Source of the DNA: Oligoflexales bacterium
GTDB taxonomy: Bacteria > Bdellovibrionota_B > Oligoflexia > Oligoflexales > JAPPIL01
NCBI GenBank assembly: GCA_965226195.1
Contig: OZ245333.1
Span: 2,087,127-2,151,126, forward strand
Direction of reading: 5' to 3'
Length of the DNA stretch: 64,000 bases
In this document: piece by piece, positions 44,687 through 61,968 of the stretch
How positions within the stretch are numbered: position 1 is the stretch's first letter
Layout: each line of letters starts with the position of its first letter
Position numbers and translations under genes: made by a program
The notes under the pieces: generated by a model
The model's input: the letters and a program-made list of their open reading frames with translations, nothing else
Told to the model about the DNA's origin: nothing
Databases searched by the model: none

Positions 44687-44729
44687 GCTTCGCTCCGCTC
44701 GCTGGCTTGTTTGCCGCTTTCTTGCTTCA

Positions 44730-45740
44730 TCAGTGTTTCTGCTGATTATCCATATCTTTGCGGAACTTGTCCGCATCAAACCCGTCGATCGTCATGCCAA
44801 GTGATAAACCCATCTCACTCAAAATATCCTTGATCTCGTTCAGCGACTTGCGCCCGAAATTTTTTGTTTTGAGCATGTCTGTCTCAGAACGCGTAACCAA
44901 CTCGCCAATATACTTGATATCGGCATTTTCAAGACAGTTCGCCGCCCGCACACTTAACTCCAGCGAATCGACGGCCTTGAACAGGTTCTCGTTCAAAGCC
45001 GACTGCCGTTCGGAATCATCGTCGTAGCTCTCTTCCTCTTCCGCCTCATCGAAGTTGATAAAGCAAGTCAGCTGTTCCTTCAGAATCTTTGCGGCATAAG
45101 CAATGGCATCGTCAGGACGCACCGCACCGTTCGTCCACACCTCCAACGTCAGACGGTCGTAATCGGTCATCTGCCCGACCCGTGTATTGGAAACATCAAT
45201 CGCTACCCGTCGCACAGGCGCAAAAATTGAGTCAATGGCAATCATCCCCAATGGCAACTCTTCATCACGGTTGCGATCGGAAGAAAAATAACCCCGTCCA
45301 ATCTTGACCACCATCTCCATCTCAAAATTGCCGTCCTCACCTACTGTCGCAATCAACTGGTCGGGGTTGAGAACCTCGACATCGCCGCTGCTCTCGATGT
45401 CTCCAGCTCGCAACACGCTATTTGCACCGCCTTTGAGATGCACCGTCACTGGCTTATCACCGAGATAGCGCAGGTTGACCTGCTTGAGGTTGAGGATGAT
45501 GTCGGTCACGTCTTCCCGGACACCCTGCAAAGTCGAGAACTCATGATCGACCCCCGGAAGACGCACCGCCGTAATCGCCGCACCGTTGATGCCAGATATG
45601 AGAATACGACGCAGCGAGTTACCAATCGTCGTGCCGTACCCGCGCTCCAGCGGCTTAGCGATAAACTTGCCATACGTATCGTTGAGAATCTCGGCTTCGA
45701 TAGCCCGCGGCTTGATCAGTTCCAGCCAGTTGCGTTGCAT
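44730..45740 (-). CDS. rpoA: DNA-directed RNA polymerase subunit alpha
   Basis: 336-aa ORF with a typical RpoA N-terminal domain (GTTIGNSLRRILIS) and C-terminal domain (LELSVRAANCLE). Confidence 0.95.
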   Translation of the reverse strand: MQRNWLELIKPRAIEAEILNDTYGKFIAKPLERGYGTTIGNSLRRILISGINGAAITAVRLPGVDHEFSTLQGVREDVTDIILNLKQVNLRYLGDKPVTVHLKGGANSVLRAGDIESSGDVEVLNPDQLIATVGEDGNFEMEMVVKIGRGYFSSDRNRDEELPLGMIAIDSIFAPVRRVAIDVSNTRVGQMTDYDRLTLEVWTNGAVRPDDAIAYAAKILKEQLTCFINFDEAEEEESYDDDSERQSALNENLFKAVDSLELSVRAANCLENADIKYIGELVTRSETDMLKTKNFGRKSLNEIKDILSEMGLSLGMTIDGFDADKFRKDMDNQQKH

Positions 45741-45750
45741 AGTTGCTTCC

Positions 45751-46380
45751 TTATTTACTGTAAAGCTCGACGACGAGCCTCTCTTTTACATTCAAGCCGA
45801 GTTCGTCGCGCACAGGTAACGATTTTATTTTACCACACTTTTTGTCCTGATCGGCCTCGCACCAGCTGAGGGCTGGCCGCCTGTTGAATAAATCCGCCGC
45901 AAGCTTCAGCACATCCATCTTTTTACTCTTCTCTCGCACTTCAATCTCATCACCAACCTTTACCTGCAACGCAGGAATGTTGACAACCTTGCCGTTCAAC
46001 TCGATATGCTTCTGCCTCACCAGCTGCCGTGCCTCGTTGCGGCTACGCGCAAAACCCATTCGATAAACAATGTTATCAAGCCGACACTCCAGATTCTTGA
46101 AGAACACCTCCGAGACAATGCCCCGCTCACGGGTCGAACGCTCAAACGTATTACGAAATTGCTTTTCAAGCAAGCCATATACCTGCCGTACTTTTTGTTT
46201 TTCACGCAGTTGCACGCCATACTCCGAAGTCTTCTGTCGTCGCGCTCGCCCGTGCACCCCCGGTGGGTAGGCTCGCCGCTCAAACGCACATTTGTCAGTT
46301 TGACAACGATCGCCCTTCAAGAACAACTTCTGACCACTACGCCGACAAAAACGGCAAACCGCACCCCGATAACGTGCCAT
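45751..46380 (-). CDS. rpsD: 30S ribosomal protein S4 (uS4)
   Basis: [14 protein letters not shown]... matches uS4. The ATG overlaps the rpsK TAA (TAATG). Confidence 0.95.
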   Translation of the reverse strand: MARYRGAVCRFCRRSGQKLFLKGDRCQTDKCAFERRAYPPGVHGRARRQKTSEYGVQLREKQKVRQVYGLLEKQFRNTFERSTRERGIVSEVFFKNLECRLDNIVYRMGFARSRNEARQLVRQKHIELNGKVVNIPALQVKVGDEIEVREKSKKMDVLKLAADLFNRRPALSWCEADQDKKCGKIKSLPVRDELGLNVKERLVVELYSK

Positions 46381-46772
46381 TACACCCGCCTCCTCTTCGG
46401 TGGGCGGCAACCGTTGTGCGGAATCGGTGTCACGTCCTTAATCAGGTTAATCTTCAAGCCTGCCGCGGCGATCGCCCGCACTGCACTTTCACGTCCTGCC
46501 CCTGGCCCCCTGACCAGCACCGCGACGCTCTTCATGCCACAATCCATCGCCTTACGGGCCGCTTCCTCTGCGGCTGTCTGTGCCGCAAAAGGCGTGCTCT
46601 TGCGCGACCCCTTGAAGCCTTTCGTGCCTGCCGAAGCCCAACACACTACCGCACCGTTCACATCGGTGATAGTAATCATCGTGTTGTTGAACGTCGCATA
46701 CACATGCGTCACCCCAATCGGCACGTTACGTTTCGTCCTCTTACGTCTGCCACTGCTTGTTTTCGCTACCAC
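46380..46772 (-). CDS. rpsK: 30S ribosomal protein S11 (uS11)
   Basis: [18 protein letters not shown]...[11 protein letters not shown] matches uS11. Confidence 0.95.
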
Positions 46773-46782
46773 TCAGCTCCTC

Positions 46783-47166
46783 CTACTTAGCGCCAGGTGC
46801 TTTTTTCTTGCCTGCCACTGTTTTGCGCGGCCCTTTGCGGGTGCGGGCATTGGTCTTGGTGCGCTGTCCCCGCACTGGCAACCGCCGTCGATGCCGCAAA
46901 CCACGATAACTGCCCATATCAACCAACCGCTTGATGTTGATAGAAATCTCACGGCGCAAGTCACCCTCGACCATGCAGTCACGATCGATTACCCGCCGCA
47001 AGGCATTGATCTCGTCCGTACTCAAATCGCCTGCGCGTTTATCCGCGGTGATTTTCGCTCGCTCCACCACCTGCGACGCCGTCTTGTGTCCTATACCATA
47101 AATGCCTGTCAAGGCAATGGCGACCTTCTTGTTACCAGGCAGGTCAACGCCTGCAATCCTTGCCAC
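46783..47166 (-). CDS. rpsM: 30S ribosomal protein S13 (uS13)
   Basis: [15 protein letters not shown]...GIYGIG matches uS13. Confidence 0.95.
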
Positions 47167-47170
47167 AATC

Positions 47171-47284
47171 CTATCCTTGTCGCTGCTTGTGTTTCTTGAC
47201 CACGCAGATCACCCGCAACACACCCTTCCGCTTCACCACCTTGCACTTATCGCAAATTGGCTTCACACTCGCTCGAACTTTCAT
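47171..47284 (-). CDS. rpmJ: 50S ribosomal protein L36 (bL36)
   Basis: Not in the ORF track because it is too short. The reverse complement translates [37 protein letters not shown]. The ATG overlaps the infA TGA (ATGA). Confidence 0.9.
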
Positions 47285-47523
47285 CTCACCTCCCGCTGTT
47301 TTTTTTCCCGATACACGATACGCCCCCGCTTCAAATCATACGGAGAAATTTCGAGCTTAACACGATCGCCCGGCAAAATCTTGATAAAGTGCATGCGCAT
47401 CTTCCCACTAATATGTGCCAAAATATCATGCCCGTTGTCCAGTTTGACCTTGAACATCGCATTGGGCAACGATTCTCTAACCACTCCGTCAACTTCAAGA
47501 ATCCCCTCTTTAGGCATCGCCAT
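47281..47523 (-). CDS. infA: Translation initiation factor IF-1
   Basis: [34 protein letters not shown]...[16 protein letters not shown] matches IF-1. Confidence 0.95.
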
Positions 47524-48157
47524 CCTCGCCGATCAACGCCTGCAAGCGCACAAACACCGTTTCCTCCGCCTGTGCCGCATCAATCTCCGTCAGCAACTCT
47601 CGCTGCGCATAAAAATTCAACAGCGGCTCGGTCTCCTCACGGTAAACCTGCAAACGCCGCTCAATCTTCTCCACCATATCATCGCTGCGCTGTTCTAGTC
47701 CCCCGCCACATGTATCACAGACACCAGTCTGTCGCGGCAGATGGCTTTGTAAGTGATAGACGGCTTGACATTGTGGACATACTCTGCGTCCCGCAATGCG
47801 TGCCACGATCTTCTTATCACCAATACGCAAAAGAATAAACATTGCCACGGGAAATTCAGCCTGCAGCGTTTCAAGATCATGTGCCTGCTGCTGCGTGCGC
47901 GGATACCCATCAAGCACTACTCGTGCCGTGCCAAAATACCGCACCGCCGCCTTGACTATCTCAAACAAAACAGGATCGGGAACAAGTTCACCCCGTGCCA
48001 TAAGCGCCTCTGCCTGCTGACCAACCTTCGTGCCTGCTTTCACCGCCGCTCGCAACGCATCACCAGTTGACAATTTCTTAAACTGCATCCTCTGCACCAA
48101 CATATCCGATTGCGTCCCCTTACCAGCCCCCGGCGGGCCGCTGAGGAGGTAAATCAC
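47510..48157 (-). CDS. adk: Adenylate kinase (zinc-lid type)
   Basis: P-loop [10 protein letters not shown] and lid cysteines CPQC...CDTC. Confidence 0.93.
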
Positions 48158-49509
48158 AACCGCCCCCCGCGTGAGCGGATGGTGTTCTTTTTCAAAAAAG
48201 CATCGTAACGCAACGACTGCCGCTGTGATTCAATTTGTCGAAAGGTATCCAACGCCACCCCGACTACAATCAACAAGCTCGTGCCGCCAAAGAAAAACTG
48301 AATGCTGAACTTGCCCGTCAAAATCACAGGCAATACACACACTGCTGACAAATAGATCGCCCCCCATAACACTAGTCGGGTAACAACCTTATTGATGTAC
48401 TCCGCCGTGCGTCCCCCCGGTCGGATACCGGGCACGAAGCCACCATATTTTTTCAAATTTTCCGCAATATCGTCAGACTTGAACGTGATTGAGGTGTAAA
48501 AAAAGGTGAAGAAAATTATCAGTGATACATAAACCGAATTGTAAAGCCATTCGCCGGGGCCGAAAACACTGTTCAAGAAATCTCCTATCCACGAATTGGG
48601 ATACAACGCTCCCATCGTCACGGGAAACTGCAACATCGAGCTAGCAAAAATAGGCGGAATTACGCCAGCAGGATTGACCCGCACAGGCAAGTGCGTGTTC
48701 TGCCCGCCGTAGATACGTTTCCCAACCTGCCGCTTAGCATACTGCACAGGTATCTGCCGTGCTGCCTGCTCGACATAGACCACTCCCGCAACTACGACAA
48801 TGACGACAAAGAGGATTATCACGATGCGAAACAAGTCGAGCTGCGCACTCGTATATTGCGTGTAGGTATTGCCAATTAAGCCCGGCAAACCTGCGACGAT
48901 ACCTGCAAAAATTATCAACGAAATACCATTACCAACCCCACGCTCGGTAATCTGTTCGCCCAACCACATTACAAAGGCCGTGCCCGCAGTCAGCGACAGA
49001 GTTGTGTTCAACTTCCAACCGAGACCACCACTGATAACCAAACTGCGTCCAAGAAAATTCGAGCCTTCCAGTGTGTTGGCAATCATGAACCCCTGAATCA
49101 CCGCCAAGATAATTGTGCCATAACGTGTGTATTGGTTGATTTTTTTGCGGCCTGCATCGCCTTCCTTTGACAAAGCTTCCAGCTGTGGCACGACTACCGT
49201 CAACAGCTGTGAAATAATGGAAGCGGAAATATACGGCATCACCCCCAGTGCAAAGACGCTGAAGCGTTCCAATGCACCGCCAGAAAACATGTTAAACATG
49301 CCAAGGAGGTTGCCACCTTGCTGATCGAAGAACTCAGCTAGTGCTACTGTATCCACACCGGGGATAGGAATATGCACGCCGATACGATAGACCGCGAGAA
49401 ACGCCAGCGTGAACAAAATCTTGCGTTGCAAGTGATTTAATTTTCCCGCCGGCAGGCTGCTGACAAGATTCACAGATATCCCTTCACGACAACTCCCGAC
49501 ATTGCCCAC
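48154..49509 (-). CDS. secY: Preprotein translocase subunit SecY
   Basis: A 10-TM ORF with ...AVYRIGVHIPIPGVD, in the conserved position after rplO. The start is ambiguous between the ATG at 49509 and the GTG at 49473. Confidence 0.92.
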   Translation of the reverse strand: MGNVGSCREGISVNLVSSLPAGKLNHLQRKILFTLAFLAVYRIGVHIPIPGVDTVALAEFFDQQGGNLLGMFNMFSGGALERFSVFALGVMPYISASIISQLLTVVVPQLEALSKEGDAGRKKINQYTRYGTIILAVIQGFMIANTLEGSNFLGRSLVISGGLGWKLNTTLSLTAGTAFVMWLGEQITERGVGNGISLIIFAGIVAGLPGLIGNTYTQYTSAQLDLFRIVIILFVVIVVVAGVVYVEQAARQIPVQYAKRQVGKRIYGGQNTHLPVRVNPAGVIPPIFASSMLQFPVTMGALYPNSWIGDFLNSVFGPGEWLYNSVYVSLIIFFTFFYTSITFKSDDIAENLKKYGGFVPGIRPGGRTAEYINKVVTRLVLWGAIYLSAVCVLPVILTGKFSIQFFFGGTSLLIVVGVALDTFRQIESQRQSLRYDAFLKKNTIRSRGGRL

Positions 49510-49933
49510 CTGCAGCGGTGATCGCTTCCCGCGCCCCTTTGCTGAACTTATGCGCTGAGACGATCAAACTGCGATCAAGCTTACCACCCGCCAGAATTTT
49601 TAGTTTTTTGTTTTTGCTCAACGATACCAGCTTCTTCTCCTTCAGCTGTGCCGTGCCGATTTCTGTGCCCGCCTCGAAACAGTTGAGCCTCTCTACAGGC
49701 AACACCTCATAGTTAGTTCTGAAGATGTTACGAAAACCACGCTTCGGCAAACGTCGATAGAGCGGAGTCTGCCCGCCCTCAAAACCACAGGCAATCTTCC
49801 CGCCACGCCGTGCCGTCTGACCCTTGTGTCCCTTGCCTGCTGTCTTGCCTGTGCCTGAGCCGATACCACGTCCCAAACGTTTGCGGGCATGCTTCGCTCC
49901 TGCATTAGGGCGCAATTCCTGCAAGGTAATCAC
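49484..49933 (-). CDS. rplO: 50S ribosomal protein L15 (uL15)
   Basis: LQELRPNAGAKHARKRLGRGIGSGTGKTAGKGHKGQ matches uL15. Confidence 0.95.
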   Translation of the reverse strand: MITLQELRPNAGAKHARKRLGRGIGSGTGKTAGKGHKGQTARRGGKIACGFEGGQTPLYRRLPKRGFRNIFRTNYEVLPVERLNCFEAGTEIGTAQLKEKKLVSLSKNKKLKILAGGKLDRSLIVSAHKFSKGAREAITAAGGQCRELS

Positions 49934-50139
49934 GATACACCCCGTGCATCTTCTTTGTCCGTCAACAACTCGTATTCAAGCAAGTGATTTGCCTTGTTGA
50001 TCATGCCACGTATGCAGTTAGTGTCTTTTTTTACCACACTGTGCCTGATACGCCGCAAACCGAGTGCCCGCACGACACGCCTCATTTTCTGCGGCTGCCC
50101 AATCAGACTGCGTTTCTGCCGAATCAAAATCTTGCTCAT
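49930..50139 (-). CDS. rpmD: 50S ribosomal protein L30 (uL30)
   Basis: MSKILIRQKRSLIGQPQKMRRVVRALGLRRI matches uL30. The start is set at the ATG at 50139, just after the rpsE stop. Confidence 0.9.
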   Translation of the reverse strand: MSKILIRQKRSLIGQPQKMRRVVRALGLRRIRHSVVKKDTNCIRGMINKANHLLEYELLTDKEDARGVS

Positions 50140-50140
50140 C

Positions 50141-50680
50141 TCACGTTCCTCCACCAATACCTAGCGTAAAATGCTCAACCGACTTGTCCCGAAACGCGGC
50201 ATACTCGGCGATCGAAATCATCTGTGTCAAGCCATCCATCGTTGCCCTGATGACATTGTGAAAATTCTTTGTGCCATGCACCTTGCAAACGATGTCGGAA
50301 ATTCCTGCCAGTTCAACGATAACCCGCACCGCACCACCAGCGATAATGCCCTTACCTTTACGCCCCGGATACATCAGTACCCGTGACGAGCCATGACAGC
50401 CAATCGCGGAGAATGGAATCGTGCCGTCAACAATAGCAATCTCGGTTAAGCTCTTGCGTGCCCGCTCAGCCCCTTTGCGAATTGCCTCTGGCACTTCGGT
50501 TGCTTTGCCCAAGCCATAGCCGACTTTGCTCACCCCGTCGCCGACCACTACCGAAGCACTGAAACTAAAACGACGACCGCCTTTCACTACTTTCGCTACC
50601 CGTGCGACGTGAATTACCCGATCTTGCAGCCCTTCGGTGACAGGCTCGCCGCCAACTCCAAACGGATTCTTATTGGTCAA
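50141..50680 (-). CDS. rpsE: 30S ribosomal protein S5 (uS5)
   Basis: RVAKVVKGGRRFSFSASVVVGD...GLGKATEVPEAIRKG matches uS5. Confidence 0.95.
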   Translation of the reverse strand: MTNKNPFGVGGEPVTEGLQDRVIHVARVAKVVKGGRRFSFSASVVVGDGVSKVGYGLGKATEVPEAIRKGAERARKSLTEIAIVDGTIPFSAIGCHGSSRVLMYPGRKGKGIIAGGAVRVIVELAGISDIVCKVHGTKNFHNVIRATMDGLTQMISIAEYAAFRDKSVEHFTLGIGGGT

Positions 50681-51066
50681 AACTTCACTCCCCCTTCACG
50701 CACGCCCTCTGCTAGAGCTTTTAGGCGACCGTGATAATTGCAGCCATTGCGATCGAAAACTACCGTCTTCACTTCTTTTGCCAAACACGCAGCAGCTAGT
50801 TTCTGCCCCAGCACTTTGCAGTTTGCGACGTTCGCCCGTGAGGCTGCGCCACGCTTTTTGCCGCTTTCGCGCTCCAAATCATCTTTGCCGAACGAACTCA
50901 CCGCCACCAACGTATGCTGCTTCACATCGTCGATCACCTGTGCATAGATGTGCCGTGCTGAACGAAACACCGACAGACGTGGGCGCTCCGTCGTGCCGCT
51001 GATTTTCTTGCGAATACGCTTCTTACGCCGCAACAGCAGCATTAGCTTAAGTGTCTGCTTCTTCAT
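50677..51066 (-). CDS. rplR: 50S ribosomal protein L18 (uL18) with an apparent internal repeat-unit insertion
   Basis: RPRLSVFRSARHIYAQVID...FDRNGCNYHGRLKALAEGVREGG matches uL18. The internal LERESGKKRG is encoded by the repeat core at 50854-50875. Confidence 0.93.
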   Translation of the reverse strand: MKKQTLKLMLLLRRKKRIRKKISGTTERPRLSVFRSARHIYAQVIDDVKQHTLVAVSSFGKDDLERESGKKRGAASRANVANCKVLGQKLAAACLAKEVKTVVFDRNGCNYHGRLKALAEGVREGGVKF

Positions 51067-51077
51067 ATATCCCTTGC

Positions 51078-51620
51078 CTACTTCTTAGTCCCAGACTTGC
51101 CGACTTTAGTGGCAATAACCTCGTCTTTATAGCGCACACCCTTGCCGTGATACGGCTCTGGCTTGCGAAAACTTCTGATAGTTGCCGCCGTGCGTCCGAC
51201 ATGCTCTTTGTTCGCACCGCTGACGACGATGTTGTTCTGCTTGCCCACCTGCACCGTCACGCCTTCCAGCGGCGTAAATTCAATCGGATGGCTGTAGCCC
51301 AGACTCAAATTCAACACCTTGCCCTTCATTGTCGCACGATAGCCAACTCCAACCATCAACAGCTCTTTAGTGAAACCTTCGGTAACACCGACTACCATGT
51401 TGTTGATCAAGGTGCGCATCAAGCCGTGAAATTTTTTGTTCTCCTTCACCTTCTCATGCAAAGTAACGAGCACCTTATCGCCATCACGGGTTACCACCGT
51501 GCGGGGATGAATCTTCTGCTCCAACGCACCCTTTGGCCCCTTGACCTTCACAACATCGTCGCTGATCTTGAGATCAACAGCACTCGGCAATGTAATTGGC
51601 AACTCACCTATACGTGACAT
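51078..51620 (-). CDS. rplF: 50S ribosomal protein L6 (uL6)
   Basis: MSRIGELPITLPSAVDLKI...GYSHPIEF...KPEPYHGKGVRY matches uL6. Confidence 0.95.
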   Translation of the reverse strand: MSRIGELPITLPSAVDLKISDDVVKVKGPKGALEQKIHPRTVVTRDGDKVLVTLHEKVKENKKFHGLMRTLINNMVVGVTEGFTKELLMVGVGYRATMKGKVLNLSLGYSHPIEFTPLEGVTVQVGKQNNIVVSGANKEHVGRTAATIRSFRKPEPYHGKGVRYKDEVIATKVGKSGTKK

Positions 51621-51631
51621 CTCTGCTCCTT

Positions 51632-51713
51632 ACTCCGCTCGTCGCAGGACTCTTTGCCACTTGCTAGCTCCTCACTCCGCTCGTCGCAGGACTCTTTGCC
51701 ACTTGCTAGCTCC
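51632..51713. repeat. Two tandem 42-bp units of the repeat family in the rpsH-rplF spacer
   Basis: actccgctcgtcgcaggactctttgccacttgctagctcctc is repeated at 51632 and 51674. Confidence 0.9.
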
Positions 51714-51714
51714 A

Positions 51715-52110
51715 TCAATACACCGAACACAACAGCTCTCCACCCGTGCCACGTCGCCGTGCTTCACGATCGGTCATGACACCCTGAGAAGTTGAAAGCA
51801 CGACGATACCAAAACCGTTCTTGATCAAGGGAATGTCCTCGCTCCCCACATAACGCCGACAACCGGGACTACTAATGCGTTTAATCTCTCTAATTACACC
51901 GTTCAACGGGTCACGATACTTTAGCGTGATCTTCAACAAACCCTGCTTGCCATCACGAATACAGCGGTAGTTTTTGACAAAACCTTCTTGCCTGAGAATA
52001 TGTGCAATGGCAATCTTTATCCGCGACGCGGGCATACTTACCACCTCGTTACACGCCCGCTGCCCGTTACGAATACGAGTGAGAAAATCAGCAATAGGAT
52101 CAGTATTCAC
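51715..52110 (-). CDS. rpsH: 30S ribosomal protein S8 (uS8)
   Basis: DPIADFLTRIRNGQRA... matches uS8. Confidence 0.95.
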   Translation of the reverse strand: MNTDPIADFLTRIRNGQRACNEVVSMPASRIKIAIAHILRQEGFVKNYRCIRDGKQGLLKITLKYRDPLNGVIREIKRISSPGCRRYVGSEDIPLIKNGFGIVVLSTSQGVMTDREARRRGTGGELLCSVY

Positions 52111-52124
52111 AGCTTAAAAACCCC

Positions 52125-52310
52125 TTACCACGATGCTTTCTTAACGCCGGGCAACAATCCACTCAACGCCATCAGCCGAAAACAGATGCGGCAAATCAAA
52201 AACTTACGGTAAACCGCCTTCGAGCGCCCACAACGACTACAGCGTGTGTAAGCACGGGAAGAAAACTTAGGTTTACGACTTGCCTTTGCAATCAAAGATT
52301 TACGTGCCAA
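52125..52310 (-). CDS. rpsN: 30S ribosomal protein S14, short zinc-binding type (uS14)
   Basis: A 61-aa ORF with CSRCGR...CRIC, i.e. type-Z S14. Confidence 0.93.
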
Positions 52311-52320
52311 ACGCTGCCCC

Positions 52321-52881
52321 TTAATTCTTTTTGAACGGAAATTTAAACCGATCTAGCAAAGCTTTTGCTGTTATATCGTTTTCAGCAGAAGTGACAATAG
52401 TTATCGACAGACCGCTGATTTTTTCGACTTTATCGTAATCTATTTCAGGAAAAATAATCTGCTCGACAATACCCAGCGAGTAATTTCCTCGCCCATCGAA
52501 CGACTTGGGTGGATAACCACGAAAGTCACGAATACGAGGCACGGCAATGTTAATCAGCCGATAGAGGAACTCATACATCCTGTCATGACGCAAGGTCACC
52601 ATGCAACCAATCGGCATGCCATCACGGATCTTGAAACCAGCAATACTTTTCTTCGCTCGCCGCACGGCTGCCTTCTGCCCGGTAATACGGGCTAATTCCT
52701 GCAACGAGCTGTCGAGTGCCTTGACGTTCTGCGCTGCCTCACCTTTGCCGATGTTGGCAACGATCTTCTGCAAACGCGGCACTTGCATGGCGTTATTCAA
52801 CCCCAACTCTTGCTGCAACTCGCGGCGAAACTGCGTATATGCTTGCTTGAGCGCGGGCACGTGTGCTGCTTGCTTTGCCAT
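52321..52881 (-). CDS. rplE: 50S ribosomal protein L5 (uL5)
   Basis: [20 protein letters not shown]...RDFRG...[11 protein letters not shown] matches uL5. Confidence 0.95.
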
Positions 52882-53250
52882 CTACACTACCTCCGGTGCC
52901 AGCGATGCAATTTTGATAAAGCCGCGGTTGCGAATTTCACGTGCCACAGGGCCGAAAATACGCGTCCCAATTGGCTCGTTGTCCTTGTTGACCAGCACGC
53001 AGGCATTCTCGTCGAACTTAATCGTCGTGCCATCCTTGCGCTGCACTTCTTTCTTGGTGCGCACGACCACTGCCCGCTGCACGCTGCCTTTCTTGGTCTT
53101 GCTGCCCGGCAGCACCTCACGCACCGAGACGATGATAATATCGCCGGGTGCGGCATAACGTCGGTTCGTGCCGCCCGGAATTTTGAAACATTTCAAACGC
53201 CGCGCGCCTGAATTGTCCCCGCTCTGCAGAATGCTTTCCATTTGAATCAT
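52882..53250 (-). CDS. rplN: 50S ribosomal protein L14 (uL14)
   Basis: [24 protein letters not shown]...GPVAREIR matches uL14. Its TAG is immediately followed by the rplE ATG. Confidence 0.95.
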
Positions 53251-53576
53251 CTTGTCGCCACCCTTATGATTTCCAGCAGATTAAAGCTTTTGCGCTTGCT
53301 GCGTGGCCGACAGGGACGCACCAGCACCTCATCACCAAGCTGCGACTTGTTATCCTCATCGTGAAAGAGAATCTTCGTCGTGCGCTTAATATATTTGCGA
53401 TAGATAGGATGCTTGACCAAACGCTCAATCTTCAACGTGCGGGTCTTCGACAACGCCGCACTGATCACTACGCCTTTCAGCGTCTTGATGCGCGCTTTGC
53501 CTGCTTCGCTCGGCTTTTTGCCGCTTTCTGCTTCGCAGGACTCTTTGCCGCTTGCTCGCTCCGCTTCACTCGTCAC
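53247..53576 (-). CDS. rpsQ: 30S ribosomal protein S17 (uS17) with a repeat-derived N-terminal extension of about 25 aa
   Basis: The core [44 protein letters not shown] matches uS17. The N-terminal [26 protein letters not shown] is encoded by repeat units. The only in-frame start I can find is the GTG at 53576, which overlaps the rpmC end. Confidence 0.9.
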
Positions 53577-53793
53577 GCTGCACCTCCTGTGTCGTTGTCA
53601 GTGTTTCCACCGTACCCGATGTCTTGCGTTCTTGCTGTTCGGTGCGAATGGTAAGCACGCGTGCCAGCACCCGCCGCAACTTGCGCTGCTGTCCGATATT
53701 TATTCCTTCTTTGTTGAGTGGTGCACGCAACTTGGCTATCGCAAGCTGTTCACGCACGTTCTCCTCTGTCTCTTTCATGTCGGCAGCACTCAT
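53566..53793 (-). CDS. rpmC: 50S ribosomal protein L29 (uL29)
   Basis: MSAADMKETEENVREQLAIAKLR...QRKLRRVLARVLT matches uL29. The start choice is tentative and the C-terminal tail is longer than usual. Confidence 0.85.
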   Translation of the reverse strand: MSAADMKETEENVREQLAIAKLRAPLNKEGINIGQQRKLRRVLARVLTIRTEQQERKTSGTVETLTTTQEVQRDE

Positions 53794-53818
53794 CTTTCTT
53801 ATTTCCACTGTCGTCAGT

Positions 53819-54259
53819 TTAGCTAGCTCCACGTGCCTGCTCCCATACATCTGTGTTCCGCATCAACAAACGTGTCTTGAAGGGCAGTTTCGAGCCTGCC
53901 AGCGTCAAAGCACGCGCGGCAATGTCGGCACTGACATCTGCCATCTCGTAGAGAATCAAGCCCGGCGCAACGGGCGAGACATAGTGATCGACCGCACCTT
54001 TGCCACTACCCATGCGTGTCTCTGCCGCTTTCTTGGTCACTGGCTTGTGAGGAAAAACTTTAATCCACACCTTACCACCACGCCGAATGTGACGCGTCAT
54101 AGCAATACGTGCTGCTTCAATCTGCCGTGCCGTGATGTAACCCGATTCGGTTGCCATCAGTCCGTAACTGCCAAACGCCAACTCCGTGCCACCCTTGCTG
54201 TTGCCTTTGATGCGCACCTTATGCGTCTTGCGAAATTTCATTTTTTTTGGTGCTAACAA
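53819..54259 (-). CDS. rplP: 50S ribosomal protein L16 (uL16)
   Basis: MLAPKKMKFRKTHKVRIKG...RMGSGKGAVD matches uL16. Confidence 0.95.
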   Translation of the reverse strand: MLAPKKMKFRKTHKVRIKGNSKGGTELAFGSYGLMATESGYITARQIEAARIAMTRHIRRGGKVWIKVFPHKPVTKKAAETRMGSGKGAVDHYVSPVAPGLILYEMADVSADIAARALTLAGSKLPFKTRLLMRNTDVWEQARGAS

Positions 54260-54274
54260 CGCGACACTCCCTAT

Positions 54275-54910
54275 CTAACGCAAGACTTCTTCGCGGAAAA
54301 TCCACACCTTGATGCCAATCAAACCATACGTGGTCAATGCCTCCGCCGTGCCATAATCGATGTCAGCACGGATAGTATGCAGTGGCACACGTCCCTCTTT
54401 ATACTGCTCAACACGCGACATCTCTGCCCCACCGAGTCGGCCGCGGCAGGTAATCTTCACGCCTCGTGCTCCTGCCTTCATAGTGTTGGCGAGTGCTTTC
54501 TTCATTGCCCGTCGAAAGGAAACCCGCCGCACCAACTGCTGGCGAATGTTGTCGGCAACCAAGCGGGCCGACAGGTTGGGTTTCTTGACTTCGTAGACGT
54601 TGAGAATCGGCTCGCCTGAGCGCACCTGACAAAGTTTGGTCAGCTCGGCTTTCAAGCTTTCTGCCCCTGCACCCTTCTTGCCGATAATTATCCCCGGTCG
54701 GCTGCTGTAGATGTTGACTTTCAAGCTCTTCGCCGCGCGTTCGATTTCAATGCGATCGATGCCAGTCATCTCAAATTTTTTCTCGATAAAGGCACGGATA
54801 CGCATGTCCTCCTTCAGTAATTCGGCGTAATTGCGATCGGCAAACCAGCGCGAAAACCAGCTGCTGTTGATGCCAAGCCGAAAACCGATGGGGTTGACCT
54901 TTTGCCCCAT
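54275..54910 (-). CDS. rpsC: 30S ribosomal protein S3 (uS3)
   Basis: MGQKVNPIGFRLGI...KH-domain...GRLGGAEMSR matches uS3. Confidence 0.95.
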   Translation of the reverse strand: MGQKVNPIGFRLGINSSWFSRWFADRNYAELLKEDMRIRAFIEKKFEMTGIDRIEIERAAKSLKVNIYSSRPGIIIGKKGAGAESLKAELTKLCQVRSGEPILNVYEVKKPNLSARLVADNIRQQLVRRVSFRRAMKKALANTMKAGARGVKITCRGRLGGAEMSRVEQYKEGRVPLHTIRADIDYGTAEALTTYGLIGIKVWIFREEVLR

Positions 54911-55248
54911 TACAGTTCCTCCAGTTTCAAGACGATGTGCGAAGTACGTTTCCTTATCGGTGAAGCTCGCCCCCGTGCTCGCGGAATAAAACGCCGCAGT
55001 GTCGGGCCTTCCTCGACAAAAATTTCTTTTACCACCAGCCGCTCCTCGTCGATCGTTGCCGTGCTGCGTATATTGGACAGAGCCGAATCCAACAGTTTAG
55101 CTACAATGGGTGCGCTCTTCTTGTGTGTCGTGCGTAACATGTTACGCGCGGTCTGCACATGCTTGCCACGCACGAGGTTAGCAACCAAGCGTGCCTTGCG
55201 TGGTGCGATGCGGAAATTGCGCAATTTAGCCGTGTATGCCGCTGGCAT
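54910..55248 (-). CDS. rplV: 50S ribosomal protein L22 (uL22)
   Basis: AKLRNFRIAPRKARLVANLVRGK...RRFIPRARGRASPIRKRTSHI matches uL22. Confidence 0.95.
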   Translation of the reverse strand: MPAAYTAKLRNFRIAPRKARLVANLVRGKHVQTARNMLRTTHKKSAPIVAKLLDSALSNIRSTATIDEERLVVKEIFVEEGPTLRRFIPRARGRASPIRKRTSHIVLKLEEL

Positions 55249-55250
55249 GG

Positions 55251-55526
55251 TTATTTCTTCCCTTTCTTGCCTTTGTCGTCGCCGTGACCATGATACGTGC
55301 GCGTCGGAGAAAACTCACCCAGCTTGTGTCCCACCATGTTCTCCGTAACGTAGACGGGGATAAACTTTTTGCCATTATGCACCGCAAAAGTCAAGCCCAC
55401 AAAGCTCGGAATGATCATTGAACGCCGACTCCAAGTTTTGATTGGCTTCTTGTCCTGACGCGCCTTCTCTGCTTTTTTTAGCAGATAATCGGCAACAAAG
55501 GGATCTTTTTTTACCGAACGTGGCAC
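55251..55526 (-). CDS. rpsS: 30S ribosomal protein S19 (uS19)
   Basis: [11 protein letters not shown]...[28 protein letters not shown] matches uS19. Confidence 0.95.
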
Positions 55527-56323
55527 TATTTAGCTCCTCTTCTACGAATAATGTCCTTAGTGGTGCGCTTGTTATGCCTCGTCTTGTAACCTTTCGTTGG
55601 TTTCGACCAAGGGGTAACAGGATGCCGACCACCAGAGGTTTTGCCCTCACCGCCGCCATGTGGGTGATCGACAGGGTTCATTGCTACACCTCGCACCTTC
55701 GGTCGATGTCCGAGCCAACGCCTGCGTCCTGCTTTGCCGTAATTGATGTTGCTGTGTTCAGCATTGCTGACCGTGCCGACCGTTGCCAGACAAGCCTCTG
55801 GCACACGACGCATCTCGCCACTCGGTAATTTCAACTGTGCATTGCCATCGACCCGCCCGACCAACTGGCAAGATGCGCCAGCACCACGACCGAGTTGCCC
55901 GCCTTTGCCCGGCTTCATTTCGATGTTGTGGATGACTGTGCCAAAAGGAATGCGACTCAACGGCAGTGTATTACCTGCCTTAATCGGGGCTTTGGGCGAG
56001 GAGACGACAGTCATGCCTTCCTTCAATTTCATCGGAGCAAGAATGTAACGGCGCTCACCGTCATGGTAGAGAATGCGAGCGATAAACGAAGTGCGGTTGG
56101 GATCATATTCGATCGTCTCCACTTTGCCCGGCACTTCAAACTTATTGCGCTTAAAATCGATGACACGATAGAGACGCTTGTGCCCTCCGCCACGATGCCG
56201 CACCGTCACACGTCCGTTGCTGTTACGCCCTGCTTTTTTGTTAAGCTTAGCCAACAATGGTTTGAAAGCCGCAACCTTGCTCAATGGTCGGTAATCAACA
56301 CTTGATGCGCCGCGCTTGCCCAT
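55526..56323 (-). CDS. rplB: 50S ribosomal protein L2 (uL2)
   Basis: [23 protein letters not shown]...[12 protein letters not shown] matches uL2. Confidence 0.95.
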
Positions 56324-56325
56324 CG

Positions 56326-56613
56326 CTAATTATCCTCAAACATTGTGATCGTCTGCCCTTGCTCAAGGGTGATGTAGGCTTTCTTGTAATTCTTACGCTT
56401 GCTAACGTGCATGCCACGTCGCTTAACCGCACCGCGCACGATACAGCTGTTGACGTGTGTCACTTTGACATCAAACAGGCTCTCGACCGCACGCTTGATA
56501 TCGGCTTTACTGGCCTTCAGAGCAGTTTTGAACAGATACTTGTTGTTATTCTCGCGCAACTTGCCGCTTTTTTCGGAGACGATGGGTTTTTCCAGCACGG
56601 CAAAACGGTTCAT
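56326..56613 (-). CDS. rplW: 50S ribosomal protein L23 (uL23)
   Basis: PIVSEKS......[24 protein letters not shown] matches uL23. Confidence 0.93.
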
Positions 56614-57263
56614 GCCGATGCCTCCTGTGCCGCGGGCTTGTTGCTGAGCCGTGTGATGATGACCTGCAACGCTGCAGCACTCAGAATCAAACTGTTGTGG
56701 GCAGCAATGTGCAAAGCGTTGATTTCACGTGGATCGATGACCGCGGTGCGATAGATATTGCGAGCTGATTTGTAGAGAAAGTCGTCTTTGCGGTCGTCAG
56801 ACAGCAGTGTTTTTTTCGTGCCAAAAGTTTGTAGCATAGCGCAGATTTTTTTGGTTTTGTATTCCTGCAGCGGAATGGCATCGACGACATGCAGGTTGCC
56901 GCTGCGAAAACGGTCGGAAAGCATGACTTTCAGTGCGAGGTTTCTCATCTTGCGGGGCAGTGTGCGTCGATATGAGCGCGGCTGAGGCCCATGCGAAATC
57001 GCTCCGCCACGCATCAGTGGTGAGCGGTTTGAGCCTTGGCGGGCATTGCCTGTGCCTTTTTGCCGAAAGGGTTTCTTGCCACCGCCGCTTACTAGTGCTC
57101 GTGTTTTGGTGGCGTGTGTGCCTTGCCTCTGGTTAGCTTGCAAATTGACGACAACTTCGTGAATCAAGCCGGGGTTGGGTTTGACTGCGAAGATGTCTGC
57201 CGCTAGTTCCAGTTTGCGCACTTCCGTGCCGTTGATGTCTTTGATGCTGACTGCGAGGCTCAT
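56610..57263 (-). CDS. rplD: 50S ribosomal protein L4 (uL4)
   Basis: QRQGTHATKTRALVSGGGKKPFRQKGTGNARQGS matches uL4. The ATG at 57263 overlaps the rplC TGA (ATGA). Confidence 0.93.
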   Translation of the reverse strand: MSLAVSIKDINGTEVRKLELAADIFAVKPNPGLIHEVVVNLQANQRQGTHATKTRALVSGGGKKPFRQKGTGNARQGSNRSPLMRGGAISHGPQPRSYRRTLPRKMRNLALKVMLSDRFRSGNLHVVDAIPLQEYKTKKICAMLQTFGTKKTLLSDDRKDDFLYKSARNIYRTAVIDPREINALHIAAHNSLILSAAALQVIITRLSNKPAAQEASA

Positions 57264-57940
57264 CGTTTCGCCTTGACTGCTGGTTTGAGAATGACAAAAC
57301 CACCACGCTGACCGGGCACTGCCCCCTTCACCGCGACGACGCACTGCTCGGTATCGACTGCCAACACCTTTAGATTTTGCACTGTGCGGTTGACGTTACC
57401 CATCTGTCCCGGCAGTTTCTTGTTCTTGAACACCCGTGCGGGTGAGGCACGGCCGCCCAGTGAGCCGGGACGGCGGTGAAAACGCGAGCCGTGTGTGCGT
57501 TTTCCCGTCTTGTGTCCCCAACGCTTGACTACACCCTGAAAACCACGCCCCTTGACAATACCCTGCACGTCGAGCAGTTTCACGTCCTTGAGCATATCGA
57601 CACTCAGCGCCGTACCGATACAATCGTCAGGCAGCGACTGGGCACTGCGAAACTCTTTGCAGTGGGCGAAGTTTTCGCTGATACCTGCCTTGCGCAGACG
57701 ACCATGATCGGGTTTGCGCAATTGCTTCTCTTTGCACTCATCATAGCCAATCTTGATAGCATCATACCCGTTGCGCTCGGCGTTCATAACGGCAATAATT
57801 CTCTGCGTCTCAACCTTAATCAGCGTCACTGCTGCCAACTCGCCTTCGTGCGGAATGCGAGTCATACCTGCCTTGCGCCCGATGAGTCCGTATAGCTCAG
57901 GTGTTTCTTCTGCTGCGGTTGTTTCTGCTGTGTCGTTCAT
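57260..57940 (-). CDS. rplC: 50S ribosomal protein L3 (uL3)
   Basis: [12 protein letters not shown]...[14 protein letters not shown] matches uL3, with a short acidic N-terminal extension. Confidence 0.93.
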
Positions 57941-57948
57941 CTCTGCAT

Positions 57949-58266
57949 CTACTGTAGTTTGACTTCAACATCTACGCCAGAGGCAAGGTCGAGCTTCATC
58001 AGAGCATCGACTGTCTGCTGCTTGGGACTCAAGATGTCGAGCAAGCGCTTATGTACTCTAATCTCGAACTGCTCCCGTGACTTCTTATCGCCATGCGGAC
58101 TACGCAACACCGTATAGCGGCTGATTGCAGTCGGCAACGGAATCGGCCCCGCCACCCGAGCTCCCGTGCGCTTCGCACGCTCAACAATCTCCGCGGCAGA
58201 TTGATCGACCAAACTATGGTCGTAGCCCTTGAGCTTTATTCGTATTTTTTGGTTTTCCATGTCCAA
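57949..58266 (-). CDS. rpsJ: 30S ribosomal protein S10 (uS10)
   Basis: [23 protein letters not shown]...LPT...[18 protein letters not shown] matches uS10. Confidence 0.95.
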
Positions 58267-58381
58267 TTCAACATCACAACGCTAGTCATTAACGATAGCA
58301 CTGACCACGCAAAAAAAGAGAGATGGAACGGGCACGCCGCCCCAAGCCGCAACCTTCAAACGTGATGCAGGCGAAGGGCAG

Positions 58382-58410
58382 AATTTAGATAATTGTGTGA
58401 CGGCTGTCAA
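58382..58410 (-). promoter_or_regulatory. Candidate sigma-70 promoter of the S10 operon (TTGACA-N17-TAAATT)
   Basis: The reverse complement reads TTGACAGCCGTCACACAATTATCTAAATT, about 115 nt upstream of the rpsJ start. This rests on sequence pattern only. Confidence 0.4.
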
Positions 58411-58585
58411 CGGTTTTTTGGATTTTTTGTAAAAATAGACACTCTGCCCTGAAACACCCCCCATATCCATGCTCGCGATTTTAAGTGGCGGACAAAATAA
58501 AAAAAGTATTGAAAAAAGCCGCAGCAATCAGATATAAGCTCCAACTCACGCGTTTGATGAGCTGAATTGCCACGAGGATAGTAAG

Positions 58586-58882
58586 GTGGGACAGAGTAAA
58601 AAAACAGAACAGCTGACGATCGCAGCGACGCGGCGGGAGAAGACAGGCAAGGGTTATGCTCGCAAGCTGCGACGGGCGGAGCAATTACCGGGAGTGATTC
58701 TCGATCGCGGCAAAAGCACGGCGATTGAACTTGACCCAAAATTGCTGGGCAAGGTGTGGAAGAGTGGTAAGCGTTTTGTGCTGGAGTTGGATGGCGAAGC
58801 GCACAAGGCGCGGTTGCATGACGTGCAGATCGATGCGGTGAAACGCACACCGTTGCACGTTGACATCATGTATGAGCGGTGA
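58586..58882 (+). CDS. rplY: 50S ribosomal protein L25 (bL25, short form)
   Basis: 98-aa ORF: ...RREKTGKGYARKLRRAEQLPGVI...RTPLHVD, located upstream of pth. Confidence 0.8.
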   Translation: MGQSKKTEQLTIAATRREKTGKGYARKLRRAEQLPGVILDRGKSTAIELDPKLLGKVWKSGKRFVLELDGEAHKARLHDVQIDAVKRTPLHVDIMYER

Positions 58883-59466
58883 AGCTGCTCGTCGGGCTGG
58901 GTAATCCCACGCCGCACTACGCCTTTACCCGCCACAATGCAGGTTTTATCTGTCTCGACTTGCTGGCGACAGAGTATAGCCTGACGTGGACGGAGAAAAA
59001 AAAACTGCGGGCTTTGGTGGCGCAAGGTGAGGTATTTGGCACAAAGTGTCTTTTGCTGAAACCGCAGACATGGATGAACCATAGCGGTCAAGCGGTGGCC
59101 GCGGCGGTGAATTTTTTCCGCCTCATGCACGACGACGTGGTGGTCTTGTATGATGACCTCGACGTGCCCGCAGGACGAGTGAAGTGCAAGGACGCTGGCA
59201 GTAGCGGTGGACACAACGGCGTGCAGAGTGTCATTGATTGTCTGCACAGCCAAAATTTCCAGCGCATCAAGCTGGGGGTGGCACGTCCGCCAGAAGCGCA
59301 GCATTCGGGGGATGGGAGCGAGAAAGCGGCAAAAAGCAGACCCACGAGCGGAGAGGAGTGGGTGCTGGGAAAATTCAGTGCAGCTGAGCTGGAAGTTTTG
59401 CGCACAGAGATGTATGAACAGGTGCTGCTGCGGTTGCGGCAGATTTTCAGAGAAACGCAGGCTTAA
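58879..59466 (+). CDS. pth: Peptidyl-tRNA hydrolase with an apparent internal repeat-unit insertion
   Basis: KLLVGLGNPTPHYAFTRHNAGF and ...GGHNGVQS match Pth. The segment PPEAQHSGDGSEKAAKSRPTSGEE interrupts the usually short G.G.P....VL loop and contains the repeat core at 59315-59336. Confidence 0.9.
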   Translation: MKLLVGLGNPTPHYAFTRHNAGFICLDLLATEYSLTWTEKKKLRALVAQGEVFGTKCLLLKPQTWMNHSGQAVAAAVNFFRLMHDDVVVLYDDLDVPAGRVKCKDAGSSGGHNGVQSVIDCLHSQNFQRIKLGVARPPEAQHSGDGSEKAAKSRPTSGEEWVLGKFSAAELEVLRTEMYEQVLLRLRQIFRETQA

Positions 59467-59491
59467 GCCGCCTGCCAGTGGAGAAGATGCT

Positions 59492-60157
59492 ATGTTGAGA
59501 GATTACGAGTTCACGATGATTGTCAGACCAGACCTGTCGGAAGAAGGCATCGGTGCGGTGATGACACACTACGAGCAAAAAATTGCCGATAGCGACGGCA
59601 GTGTGCTCAGAAAAGACGCAGTGGGGACGAAACGCTTCTCCTACCCAATCAAGAGATGCTTCCGCGGTTACTACGTCAACTACGATATTTCCGCCGACCC
59701 GAAAGTGGTCAAAGACATGGAACATCAGATTCGTTTCGACGATAAGGTTTTGCGCCACCTCATTATCGGCATGGATCGGCGCAGGTCAGCTGCAGTGCGA
59801 AAAGAGATTGCCGCGGAACAAAAGCGCATCGCTGAAGCACAAGCCGAGTCCGCCGCTCGTCTCGGAGAAAGCAGTGTCTCGGCAACACCGCCCGACTCGG
59901 ACATGCCAGAGCTTAGTCAAGAAACGGTAATCGACAGCACCCCGCCCGTTGGAGAAGTTATGGAAAGCGATGTCACATTGCCCGCAAGTGGGGCTACTGA
60001 AACTGAAGCAGCAGCATCGCTCAATGCAAAAACGGTTGTAGACGGTGTGTCGCCCAACAGCGAGGATACGGTGGTCGATAAATCACCACCGCTAACGGAG
60101 GAAACAGTTATCGACAGTGTGCCGTCAGGCAGCGAAGAAGACGAGAAGGTGGAGTAA
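59492..60157 (+). CDS. rpsF: 30S ribosomal protein S6 (bS6) with a long acidic, internally repetitive C-terminal tail
   Basis: MLRDYEFTMIVRPDLSEE...KRFSYPIKR..RGYYVNYD matches bS6. The start is at the ATG at 59492. The tail of about 100 aa contains four xTV(I/V)Dxx(S/P)Pxx(S/T)E repeats. Confidence 0.9.
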   Translation: MLRDYEFTMIVRPDLSEEGIGAVMTHYEQKIADSDGSVLRKDAVGTKRFSYPIKRCFRGYYVNYDISADPKVVKDMEHQIRFDDKVLRHLIIGMDRRRSAAVRKEIAAEQKRIAEAQAESAARLGESSVSATPPDSDMPELSQETVIDSTPPVGEVMESDVTLPASGATETEAAASLNAKTVVDGVSPNSEDTVVDKSPPLTEETVIDSVPSGSEEDEKVE

Positions 60158-60180
60158 CAGAGCGAGTAGGGAGAGATGAG

Positions 60181-60624
60181 ATGCGAGTGATTCTTACGAA
60201 AGACGTTGCAGGATTGGGCAGCAGCGGGGCAGAGATAGTGGTGAAAGGCGGTTATGCCCGCAATTTTCTGTTGCCGTCACGTTTGGCAGTGTTGGCTAGC
60301 GGGAAAAACAAAGCAATCAACGAACATCATCGTCGAGTCATCGCCCGTCAACAGGAGAAGTTGCTAAACGCTGCGAAAGCTACCGCAGAACAACTCGGCA
60401 AATTGTCGCTCACTATCGCCCGGCAGGTAGGTGAAGGTGAGCGTATTTTTGGCACGGTAACCACGGGCGAGTTGGAAAAAATGATCAAAGCCGAAGGAAT
60501 TGAAGTTTCTCGCAAGGACATCGTGCTTGCTGAAGAAATCAAAAAGACAGGAATCTATGAAGCAGAGATAAAGCTGCACCCCCAACTTACAGCTAAATTC
60601 AAAATTTGGGTCGTGGCAGCTTGA
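60181..60624 (+). CDS. rplI: 50S ribosomal protein L9 (bL9)
   Basis: MRVILTKDVAGLGSSGAEIVVKGGYARNFLLP matches bL9. Confidence 0.93.
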   Translation: MRVILTKDVAGLGSSGAEIVVKGGYARNFLLPSRLAVLASGKNKAINEHHRRVIARQQEKLLNAAKATAEQLGKLSLTIARQVGEGERIFGTVTTGELEKMIKAEGIEVSRKDIVLAEEIKKTGIYEAEIKLHPQLTAKFKIWVVAA

Positions 60625-60639
60625 GGAGGTGGATAGAAC

Positions 60640-61968
60640 ATGTCCGCGGCTGTCCCTCCTCACTCGGTGGAAGCCGAGAAAGCGGTGCTTGGTGCGATTC
60701 TCAATGAACCCGCAACCTTCATCAACGTCTCCAACATTCTGCGCCAAGAACATTTTTATCTCGAAAAACATCAAGTAATCTACGCAGTCATCGCCGAACT
60801 TGATCGAGATGGCCGTGCCGCCGACGTTATTACCGTCGCAGAGTTGGCTGGTTATCGTGGGAAAATTTCGGTCGCCTACCTGTCGGAATTAGTGGACAGC
60901 TGCCCCGTAACGCTGCACATCGACCACTATGCCAATATTGTTAAGCAGTGCTCCGTGCGCCGTAAAATTATCAAGTGCTGCCAAGATGTCATCAAAAAAA
61001 CATTGCACTTCGACGGACGTGACGAAGAATTTTTAGAGCAAATTGAAAAAGAACTGCTGCAGGCAACCGAAGAACAGGAACAGCGTGGCCTGATTCCCGC
61101 GGGTGATATCATTGGAGCAGTAATGGATGAGTTGGAAAGCCGTATCGGGGCGGGAGACGAGCTGACAGGTGTGCCAACTGGCTTCAAGGATATCGATGCA
61201 GTAACAGGCGGATGGCAAGCGAGCGATTTGATAATTCTCGCGGCACGGCCGGGTATGGGCAAGACTGCAATGGCATTAAACTGGGCAGTATCAGCAGCAC
61301 GCAAGGGTGTCCCCACCGCGGTGTTCTCGTTGGAGATGTCAAGAAATCAGTTGGTCATGCGTTTGTTGGCATCGGAAGCAAAAATCGATGCGGCTAAAAT
61401 GCGTCGCGGCAATTTAAACGAAGGCGAGCAAGACATGCTGATGCAAGGCATGCGTCAGTTGAACGATTTACCTGCACAGCTCAGCATCGACGATACCCCC
61501 GCGATTACCATGATGGAATTGCGCTCGCGCTGTCGGCGTTTCAAACGTGAACATGGACTTGGTTTAATTGTCATCGACTACTTGCAGTTGGTCGGTCGCA
61601 ATGTCGAGACCCGCTACGAAAACCGTGAGCGGGAAATTTCGGAAATTTCCCGCAGCTTGAAAGCGTTGGCAAAAGAATTAAGCGTGCCCGTCATCTCGTT
61701 AGCACAGCTGAACCGCGCCCCCGATGCACGCCCCGATAAACGCCCGCGCATGAGTGATTTGCGCGAATCAGGTTCGATGGAACAAGATGCCGACCTCGTG
61801 CTGTTTATTTACCGTGACGAATACTATCACAAGTCTTCCGAAGAAGCAGGCAAAGCAGAAGTCATCATCGGCAAAAACCGACACGGGCCGATGGAAACGA
61901 TTGAACTCGCTTTCCTCGCCAACTACGTGTCCTTTCACACCCTCGACACGACTGAGTTTCATCAGTGA
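60640..61968 (+). CDS. dnaB: Replicative DNA helicase DnaB
   Basis: PPHSVEAEKAVLGAIL, Walker A ARPGMGKTA, and the IVIDYLQL and SGSMEQDADLV motifs. Confidence 0.95.
   Translation: MSAAVPPHSVEAEKAVLGAILNEPATFINVSNILRQEHFYLEKHQVIYAVIAELDRDGRAADVITVAELAGYRGKISVAYLSELVDSCPVTLHIDHYANIVKQCSVRRKIIKCCQDVIKKTLHFDGRDEEFLEQIEKELLQATEEQEQRGLIPAGDIIGAVMDELESRIGAGDELTGVPTGFKDIDAVTGGWQASDLIILAARPGMGKTAMALNWAVSAARKGVPTAVFSLEMSRNQLVMRLLASEAKIDAAKMRRGNLNEGEQDMLMQGMRQLNDLPAQLSIDDTPAITMMELRSRCRRFKREHGLGLIVIDYLQLVGRNVETRYENREREISEISRSLKALAKELSVPVISLAQLNRAPDARPDKRPRMSDLRESGSMEQDADLVLFIYRDEYYHKSSEEAGKAEVIIGKNRHGPMETIELAFLANYVSFHTLDTTEFHQ

Follow-up and report, generated by a model that had tools for sequence, protein, structure and literature searches.

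We have found a large, ecologically widespread clade of bacteria in which rplX, the gene for ribosomal protein uL24, is missing from its place between rplN (uL14) and rplE (uL5). In the window, by which we mean the whole 64-kb stretch of DNA that was analysed, the two neighbours adjoin directly within a superoperon that is canonical at all other positions. The rplX-less junction is a shared character of the clade, older and broader than the window's genome alone. The gene has either moved elsewhere in the genome or been lost; we hold the former to be the more probable and the latter to be a serious contender.

Background

uL24 is conserved in Bacteria, Archaea and Eukarya alike and is classically the protein that initiates assembly of the 50S subunit. 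As a universal marker it belongs both to the set of 16 ribosomal proteins on which trees are built and to the 120 bacterial markers of GTDB, and rplN-rplX-rplE is among the most stable gene orders known. Ribosomal protein genes can occur outside their usual cluster, as do rpsD in Firmicutes and rpsJ in cyanobacteria, and in land plants rpl24 has been transferred from the plastid rpl14-rpl24-rpl5 cluster to the nucleus. We know of no report of such a displacement for rplX, a gene of the middle of the spc operon, nor of another bacterial lineage whose rplX, by itself, has moved out of that operon. Bacteria of the Candidate Phyla Radiation (CPR) are reportedly without uL30 throughout, and without bL9 and uL1 in subsets. 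In an L24-less E. coli mutant, bL20 is said to be able to replace L24 in assembly initiation at lower temperatures.

Losses of uL24 have been published only for endosymbionts whose genomes are <1 Mb, where they correlate with the loss of bL9 (Nikolaeva et al. 2021, Mol Biol Evol, PMC7782861). The ribosomal proteins lost first or often in reduced ribosomes are bL9, bL25, uL29, uL30 and bL36 (PMC7782861). uL24 is individually dispensable in E. coli according to Shoji et al. 2011, as cited in PMC7782861. Full-text literature searches found no mention of an absence of uL24, rplX or L24 in Oligoflexia or Bdellovibrionota, and full-text searches on such an absence in general returned nothing relevant on an rplX-less clade.

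Methods

Relatives were collected with an L5 protein scan of one genome per GTDB species, which returned 80 loci, with a protein search that found closer relatives, and with a metagenome scan for which the clade-specific L14 N-terminus served as bait and which returned 80 further loci. A neighbour-joining tree was built from concatenated L14 and L5 (140 loci, 303 columns). The L24 HMM was built from the 79 L24 genes found in the loci of other species and was run on stop-to-stop ORFs from all six frames, with a minimum length of 20 aa. The window was also searched by tblastn with E. coli and B. subtilis L24.

Results

On the minus strand of the window, the rplN stop codon (TAG, 52882-52884) abuts the rplE start codon (ATG, 52879-52881), with a spacer of 0 nt and no rplX. 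The junction reads ...CCGGAGGTAGTGTAGATGGCAAAG on this strand, or in codons GCA CCG GAG GTA GTG TAG ATG GCA AAG. Its features are as follows.

52882-53250, minus strand: rplN (uL14), 122 aa, full length, stop codon TAG; Pfam Ribosomal_L14 over positions 1-122 of 122, E 1e-49
52321-52881, minus strand: rplE (uL5), 186 aa, full length; Pfam Ribosomal_L5 and Ribosomal_L5_C (residues 30-183)
52890-52894, minus strand: GGAGG, a Shine-Dalgarno-like motif for rplE within the last rplN codons (Pro-Glu-Val), 8 nt 5' of the ATG

As judged from the sequence, the GGAGG at 52890-52894 is the putative ribosome-binding site of rplE, and translation of L5 in the window is probably tightly coupled to that of L14. 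The same uL5 protein is present on independent contigs.

The junction lies within a complete set of neighbours, and further ribosomal protein genes stand upstream of rpsJ.

44300-58266, minus strand: S10-spc-alpha superoperon (rpsJ ... rplQ), canonical at all positions except rplX, with Pfam assignments on every ORF
53566-53850, minus strand: uL29, 94 aa, 23.7 bits against a Pfam cut-off of 24.5
52125-52310, minus strand: rpsN, short S14 form, 61 aa
58586-58882, plus strand: rplY (bL25), Pfam Ribosomal_L25p, E 6e-18; often lost in reduced genomes, kept here
59492-60157, plus strand: rpsF (bS6), 221 aa, with a normal S6 domain at residues 5-92
60181-60624, plus strand: rplI (bL9), Pfam Ribosomal_L9_N and L9_C; retained here

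The gene order is the canonical rpsJ-rplC-rplD-rplW-rplB-rpsS-rplV-rpsC-rplP-rpmC-rpsQ-rplN-...-rplE-rpsN-rpsH-rplF-rplR-rpsE-rpmD-rplO-secY-adk-infA-rpmJ-rpsM-rpsK-rpsD-rpoA-rplQ, and the rplX expected between rplN and rplE is not there. Pfam confirmed S10, L3, L4, L23, L2, S19, L22, S3, L16, L6, L18, S5, L30, L15, SecY, Adk, IF-1, L36, S13, S11, S4, RpoA and L17, together with S17, S14, S8 and a weak L29 in the ORFs flanking rplN and rplE. The claims of an earlier sequence-only reading of this DNA are upheld on these points. It had held that rplX is missing from the rplN-rplX-rplE slot, and the TAG and ATG are indeed contiguous, with no L24 profile match in the window. It had held that the remaining S10/spc/alpha genes keep their canonical order, which the Pfam assignment of each ORF bears out. 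It had also held that L24 is fused to neither neighbour; both L14 and L5 are of normal length and are covered by their profiles from one end to the other, and such a fusion was rejected on this ground.

The window encodes bL9, bL25, uL29, uL30 and bL36, that is, all five of the often-lost ribosomal proteins. Its uL29 is long, at 94 aa versus 67-72 aa in deeper members of the clade; the ORFs at the uL29 position in two related contigs (L082 and L083) have no Pfam match on record. In several related contigs rpsN was overlooked by gene callers, leaving a gap of ~200-260 nt between L5 and S8 in the gene lists. The genes rplY-pth-rpsF-rplI-dnaB form a cluster (58586-61968, plus strand) divergent from the adjoining rpsJ. 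The region upstream of rpsJ differs in L082, a relative of 87% identity, where it encodes a PDZ/S41 protease and a TPR protein. The bS6 of the window bears an acidic tail of ~125 aa after the S6 domain, with repeated ...ETVIDS... motifs. rpsF is followed by rplI after 23 nt without rpsR (bS18) between them (59492-60624, plus strand), and no S18 was detectable anywhere in the 64-kb window. Since bS18 is essential in E. coli and, to our knowledge, has not been reported lost, rpsR is presumably encoded elsewhere in the genome.

The junction is reproduced in separately assembled reads. A Logan short-read contig (L001, run ERR14231558) crosses it and is 100% identical to window positions 51684-53548, and two others (L170 and L171, runs ERR14231557 and ERR14231558) are 100% identical to positions 53524-64000 and 55317-61969, in the upstream part of the operon. 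An alternative assembly had been proposed as a test of the sequence-only reading; the ERR14231558 contig across the junction, at 100% identity, shows no rplX. A dnaB-based extension of the window returned only short Logan contigs identical to the window.

The L24 HMM found no match in any of the six frames of the window (best E 2.5), and a hidden or overlapping L24 ORF was rejected on this ground. Among related contigs, the best E was 2.5 in L001, L002 and L082-L086 and 5.5 in L087-L089, and the ~40 rplX-less JGI loci yielded no match. The sensitivity of the HMM was apparent in 22 metagenome loci outside the training set, where L24 between L14 and L5 was matched at E 1e-17 to 1e-45, truncated copies included. 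By tblastn the best E in the window was 0.07, and these matches were two short fragments in a non-coding stretch. No L24 was found in 50 rplX-less loci with a total of 469 kb, all centred on the superoperon (<=10 kb either side in the relatives). The L24 profile detected no rplX pseudogene remnants in the rplN-rplE spacers of other clade members.

Comparison across genomes sets this arrangement apart from the rule. L24 lies exactly between L14 and L5 in 79 of the 80 GTDB-species loci. The lone exception, JACPKR01, was also the best match, at 61% L5 identity; this MAG comes from groundwater, bears the label "Deltaproteobacteria bacterium" and has 3 nt between the L14 stop and the L5 start. In the metagenome scan, ~40 loci lacked L24 and had a gap of 6-153 nt from L14 to L5, and 22 loci from other lineages kept L24, so that the control loci with rplX in the slot number 101 (79 GTDB-species and 22 metagenome loci). 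The closer relatives were as follows.

87% L5 identity: ENA contig, 2.18 Mb; rplN and rplE adjacent
79% L5 identity: ENA contig, 2.56 Mb, and Logan contig; rplN and rplE adjacent
77% L5 identity: two assemblies; rplN and rplE adjacent
68% L5 identity: Logan contig; 43-nt spacer
68% L5 identity: JGI contig, 538 kb; 104-nt spacer
64% L5 identity: MAG labelled Pseudobacteriovorax sp.; 28-nt spacer

Clade contigs in ENA are ERZ25070786 ctg150390c (2,180,710 bp) and ERZ25072670 ctg256745 (2,558,385 bp), and close relatives have the operon on single contigs that are 1.57-3.22 Mb long. Among named relatives, the MAG labelled Pseudobacteriovorax sp., a genus of the Oligoflexia, Bdellovibrionota, according to NCBI, is the one nearest to the clade. 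The earlier reading had called a clean excision or relocation of the gene unusual and had proposed that the spc operon be compared in related genomes. The controls agree with the first statement, and the comparison found the same rplX-less adjacency in relatives from 87% down to 61% L5 identity.

In all, rplN is followed directly by rplE, with a spacer of 0-153 nt, in 48 loci; groundwater, freshwater and soil are among the metagenomes from which they come. The sample names of clade loci refer to groundwater, lakes, rivers, sludge and saline lakes. A single branch of the L14+L5 tree has exactly these 48 loci on one side and the 92 loci with L24 on the other, in 50 of 50 bootstraps. The removal of rplX is therefore a single ancient event, inherited by the whole clade. 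All other L24-less loci together are the sister group of the window's subclade, which forms one of the clade's two basal branches; no credible sister lineage keeping rplX was resolved in the L14+L5 tree.

A second clade marker is a lipoprotein gene that directly follows rplQ and co-occurs with the rplX-less junction.

43885-44343, minus strand: lipoprotein gene with lipobox LLAGC, directly after rplQ; no Pfam family
Homologues after rplQ in related contigs: L002 18269-18697, L082 18501-18935, L083 18607-19011, L085 17541-17975, L088 19166-19570, L089 18196-18609

The lipoprotein, of 134-152 aa, occurs in all clade loci with enough flanking sequence, as well as in several JGI clade loci, and none of the 79 rplX-bearing outgroup loci has it. 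When it served as bait in a metagenome scan, nothing was returned. This ORF without Pfam family was considered as a relocated L24 and rejected for its signal peptide and lipobox. L14 itself is also distinctive: that of the window carries the clade signature ...SGDNSGA...KCFK...IASLAPEVV, and the C-terminal end reads IASLAPEV in the clade versus MKI[IV]SLAPEV in outgroups.

Some features are restricted to parts of the clade. In the 77%-identity subclade, uL5 has an N-terminal tail of ~55 aa that is rich in Lys, Ala and Thr and resembles histone H1 (L085 8277-8996 and L086 5368-6087; tail-bearing proteins P0013-P0015, P0017 and P0121). This low-complexity extension, confined to one subclade, was considered as a remnant of L24 and rejected. 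Members with a spacer show conserved hairpin-like elements between rplN and rplE, such as GCCGGTATAGCGGGAAGGTCGCTGCTCCGGC and ACCGGTATTGTGAGGAGGTCGCAGGTCCGGT, with apparent compensatory changes.

Hairpin-like spacer elements: L103 1851-1925, L128 8092-8180, L100 2557-2625
Hairpin-like spacer elements: L105 1743-1850, L110 10367-10470, L118 10367-10475

By analogy with E. coli, these hairpins may be an S8 operator at the start of L5; RNAalifold predicted no structure on a mixed set of spacers. The rplN-rplE spacer of L140 (10370-10480), the member that diverges furthest within the main branch, is 153 nt long and has three tandem copies of ~18 nt (GGGGTGTTGTTAGAATAT).

Discussion

We consider it fairly probable that the uL24 gene is retained as a copy elsewhere in the genome. 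The spc operon lost its rplX by one clean deletion, in the ancestor shared by a deep environmental clade, and in the window rplE now begins immediately after the rplN stop, probably using the GGAGG embedded in the end of rplN. On the proposed reading a duplicate or acquired copy of rplX would have arisen elsewhere before this deletion, and the ribosome would still contain uL24, made from a gene outside both the superoperon and the 64-kb window. Known precedents match this proposal in part. Displaced rpsD and rpsJ are likewise single genes outside the S10/spc/alpha superoperon whose function is retained. The plastid rpl24 provides a model in which the gene leaves the cluster and the protein stays in the ribosome, although that was a transfer from organelle to nucleus and not a move within one bacterial chromosome.

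Relocation is favoured over true loss because the ribosome shows no sign of reduction, given that the window encodes every one of bL9, bL25, uL29, uL30 and bL36, and because the relatives' contigs reach 1.6-3.2 Mb, whereas published uL24 losses occur only in genomes <1 Mb. Two further observations favour it. No compensating clade-wide size change was found in operon-encoded proteins that sit close to the tunnel exit or act early in assembly, uL23, uL22, uL4 and uL3 among them (uL29 was not recovered by the comparison), and rpsR is also gone from its usual place between rpsF and rplI. If rpsR is encoded elsewhere, single ribosomal protein genes do leave conserved clusters in the window's lineage. 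Against relocation, no clade L24 was found in the 469 kb, although this DNA, all centred on one operon, says little on the rest of the genome.

True loss would mean that the whole clade makes its 50S subunit without uL24, with uL3 and other early binders initiating assembly and the tunnel-exit site left empty. We regard this as the less probable outcome, yet one with substantial points in its favour. The deletion is free of remnants in every member, the L24 profile being blank in the spacers as well as in the clade DNA. When rpmD (uL30) is absent inside spc operons it has usually been really lost, and sample names place most of the clade in cool waters and groundwater, where an L24-less E. coli mutant is said to be viable. 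E. coli rplX-null strains show that a bacterial ribosome assembles and works without uL24, although these are laboratory mutants with slow, temperature-sensitive growth and not a natural lineage. The dispensability of uL24 in E. coli, as cited in PMC7782861, makes loss physically possible, and uL24 has been lost repeatedly in endosymbionts (PMC7782861). The tiny-genome cases resemble the present one in that rplX is absent from the rplN-rplE slot and uL24 is among the dispensable ribosomal proteins. They differ in that they are endosymbionts of <1 Mb that have lost bL9 and others, whereas the present clade is environmental, keeps bL9 and the other four, and has relatives with single contigs of 1.6-3.2 Mb; its lack of L24 was read around one superoperon. 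Neither mark of reductive loss is found here, be it a genome below ~1 Mb or the co-loss of bL9, bL25, uL29, uL30 and bL36, and uL23, uL22, uL4 and uL3 carry no extension that would compensate for a missing uL24. The CPR bacteria offer another parallel, since there too a missing ribosomal protein gene of a conserved operon is a shared derived character of a deep lineage; the protein is a different one, the genomes are small, the lifestyles are symbiotic, and the absence there was checked on whole genomes. It seems to us rather unlikely that the Oligoflexia-related Bdellovibrionota concerned, a widespread lineage at class level whose genomes are of normal size, do without uL24 while their ribosomes are otherwise unreduced.

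Between them, the two remaining explanations take up only a very small share of the probability. The operon or its immediate flank might still carry a uL24 gene that escapes recognition through divergence, fusion or overlap. The unusually long uL29 of the window, just under the Pfam cut-off, and the 55-aa L5 extension could be taken to point that way. However, every ORF from rpsJ to rplQ is assigned and none is spare, the six-frame profile searches were blank, and the extra gene after rplQ encodes a lipoprotein with a signal peptide. The L5 extension has no KOW motif besides being of low complexity and limited to one subclade, and the enlargement of L29 is limited to the window's subclade, with L29 of normal size in deeper rplX-less members, so that a cryptic local uL24 is very improbable. 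Still more so, to the point of being negligible, is a sequencing or assembly artefact in which a collapsed or mis-joined region dropped rplX: Logan contigs from two runs are identical to the window, one of them across the junction, dozens of unrelated ENA, NCBI and JGI assemblies have the same rplN-rplE adjacency, and both ORFs beside the junction are intact.

Conclusions

With rplX never in its place, the clade will always seem to fall slightly short of completeness when quality is checked with marker genes or when phylogenies are drawn from the operon. The rplN-rplE junction is a simple synapomorphy by which the clade can be recognised on short contigs. If uL24 is truly lost, this would be the first such loss for a bacterium with a normal-sized genome and a notable exception to the universality of uL24. 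A genome-wide absence of the gene would make the clade the first natural, non-endosymbiont system in which 50S assembly and the function of the tunnel exit could be studied without uL24.
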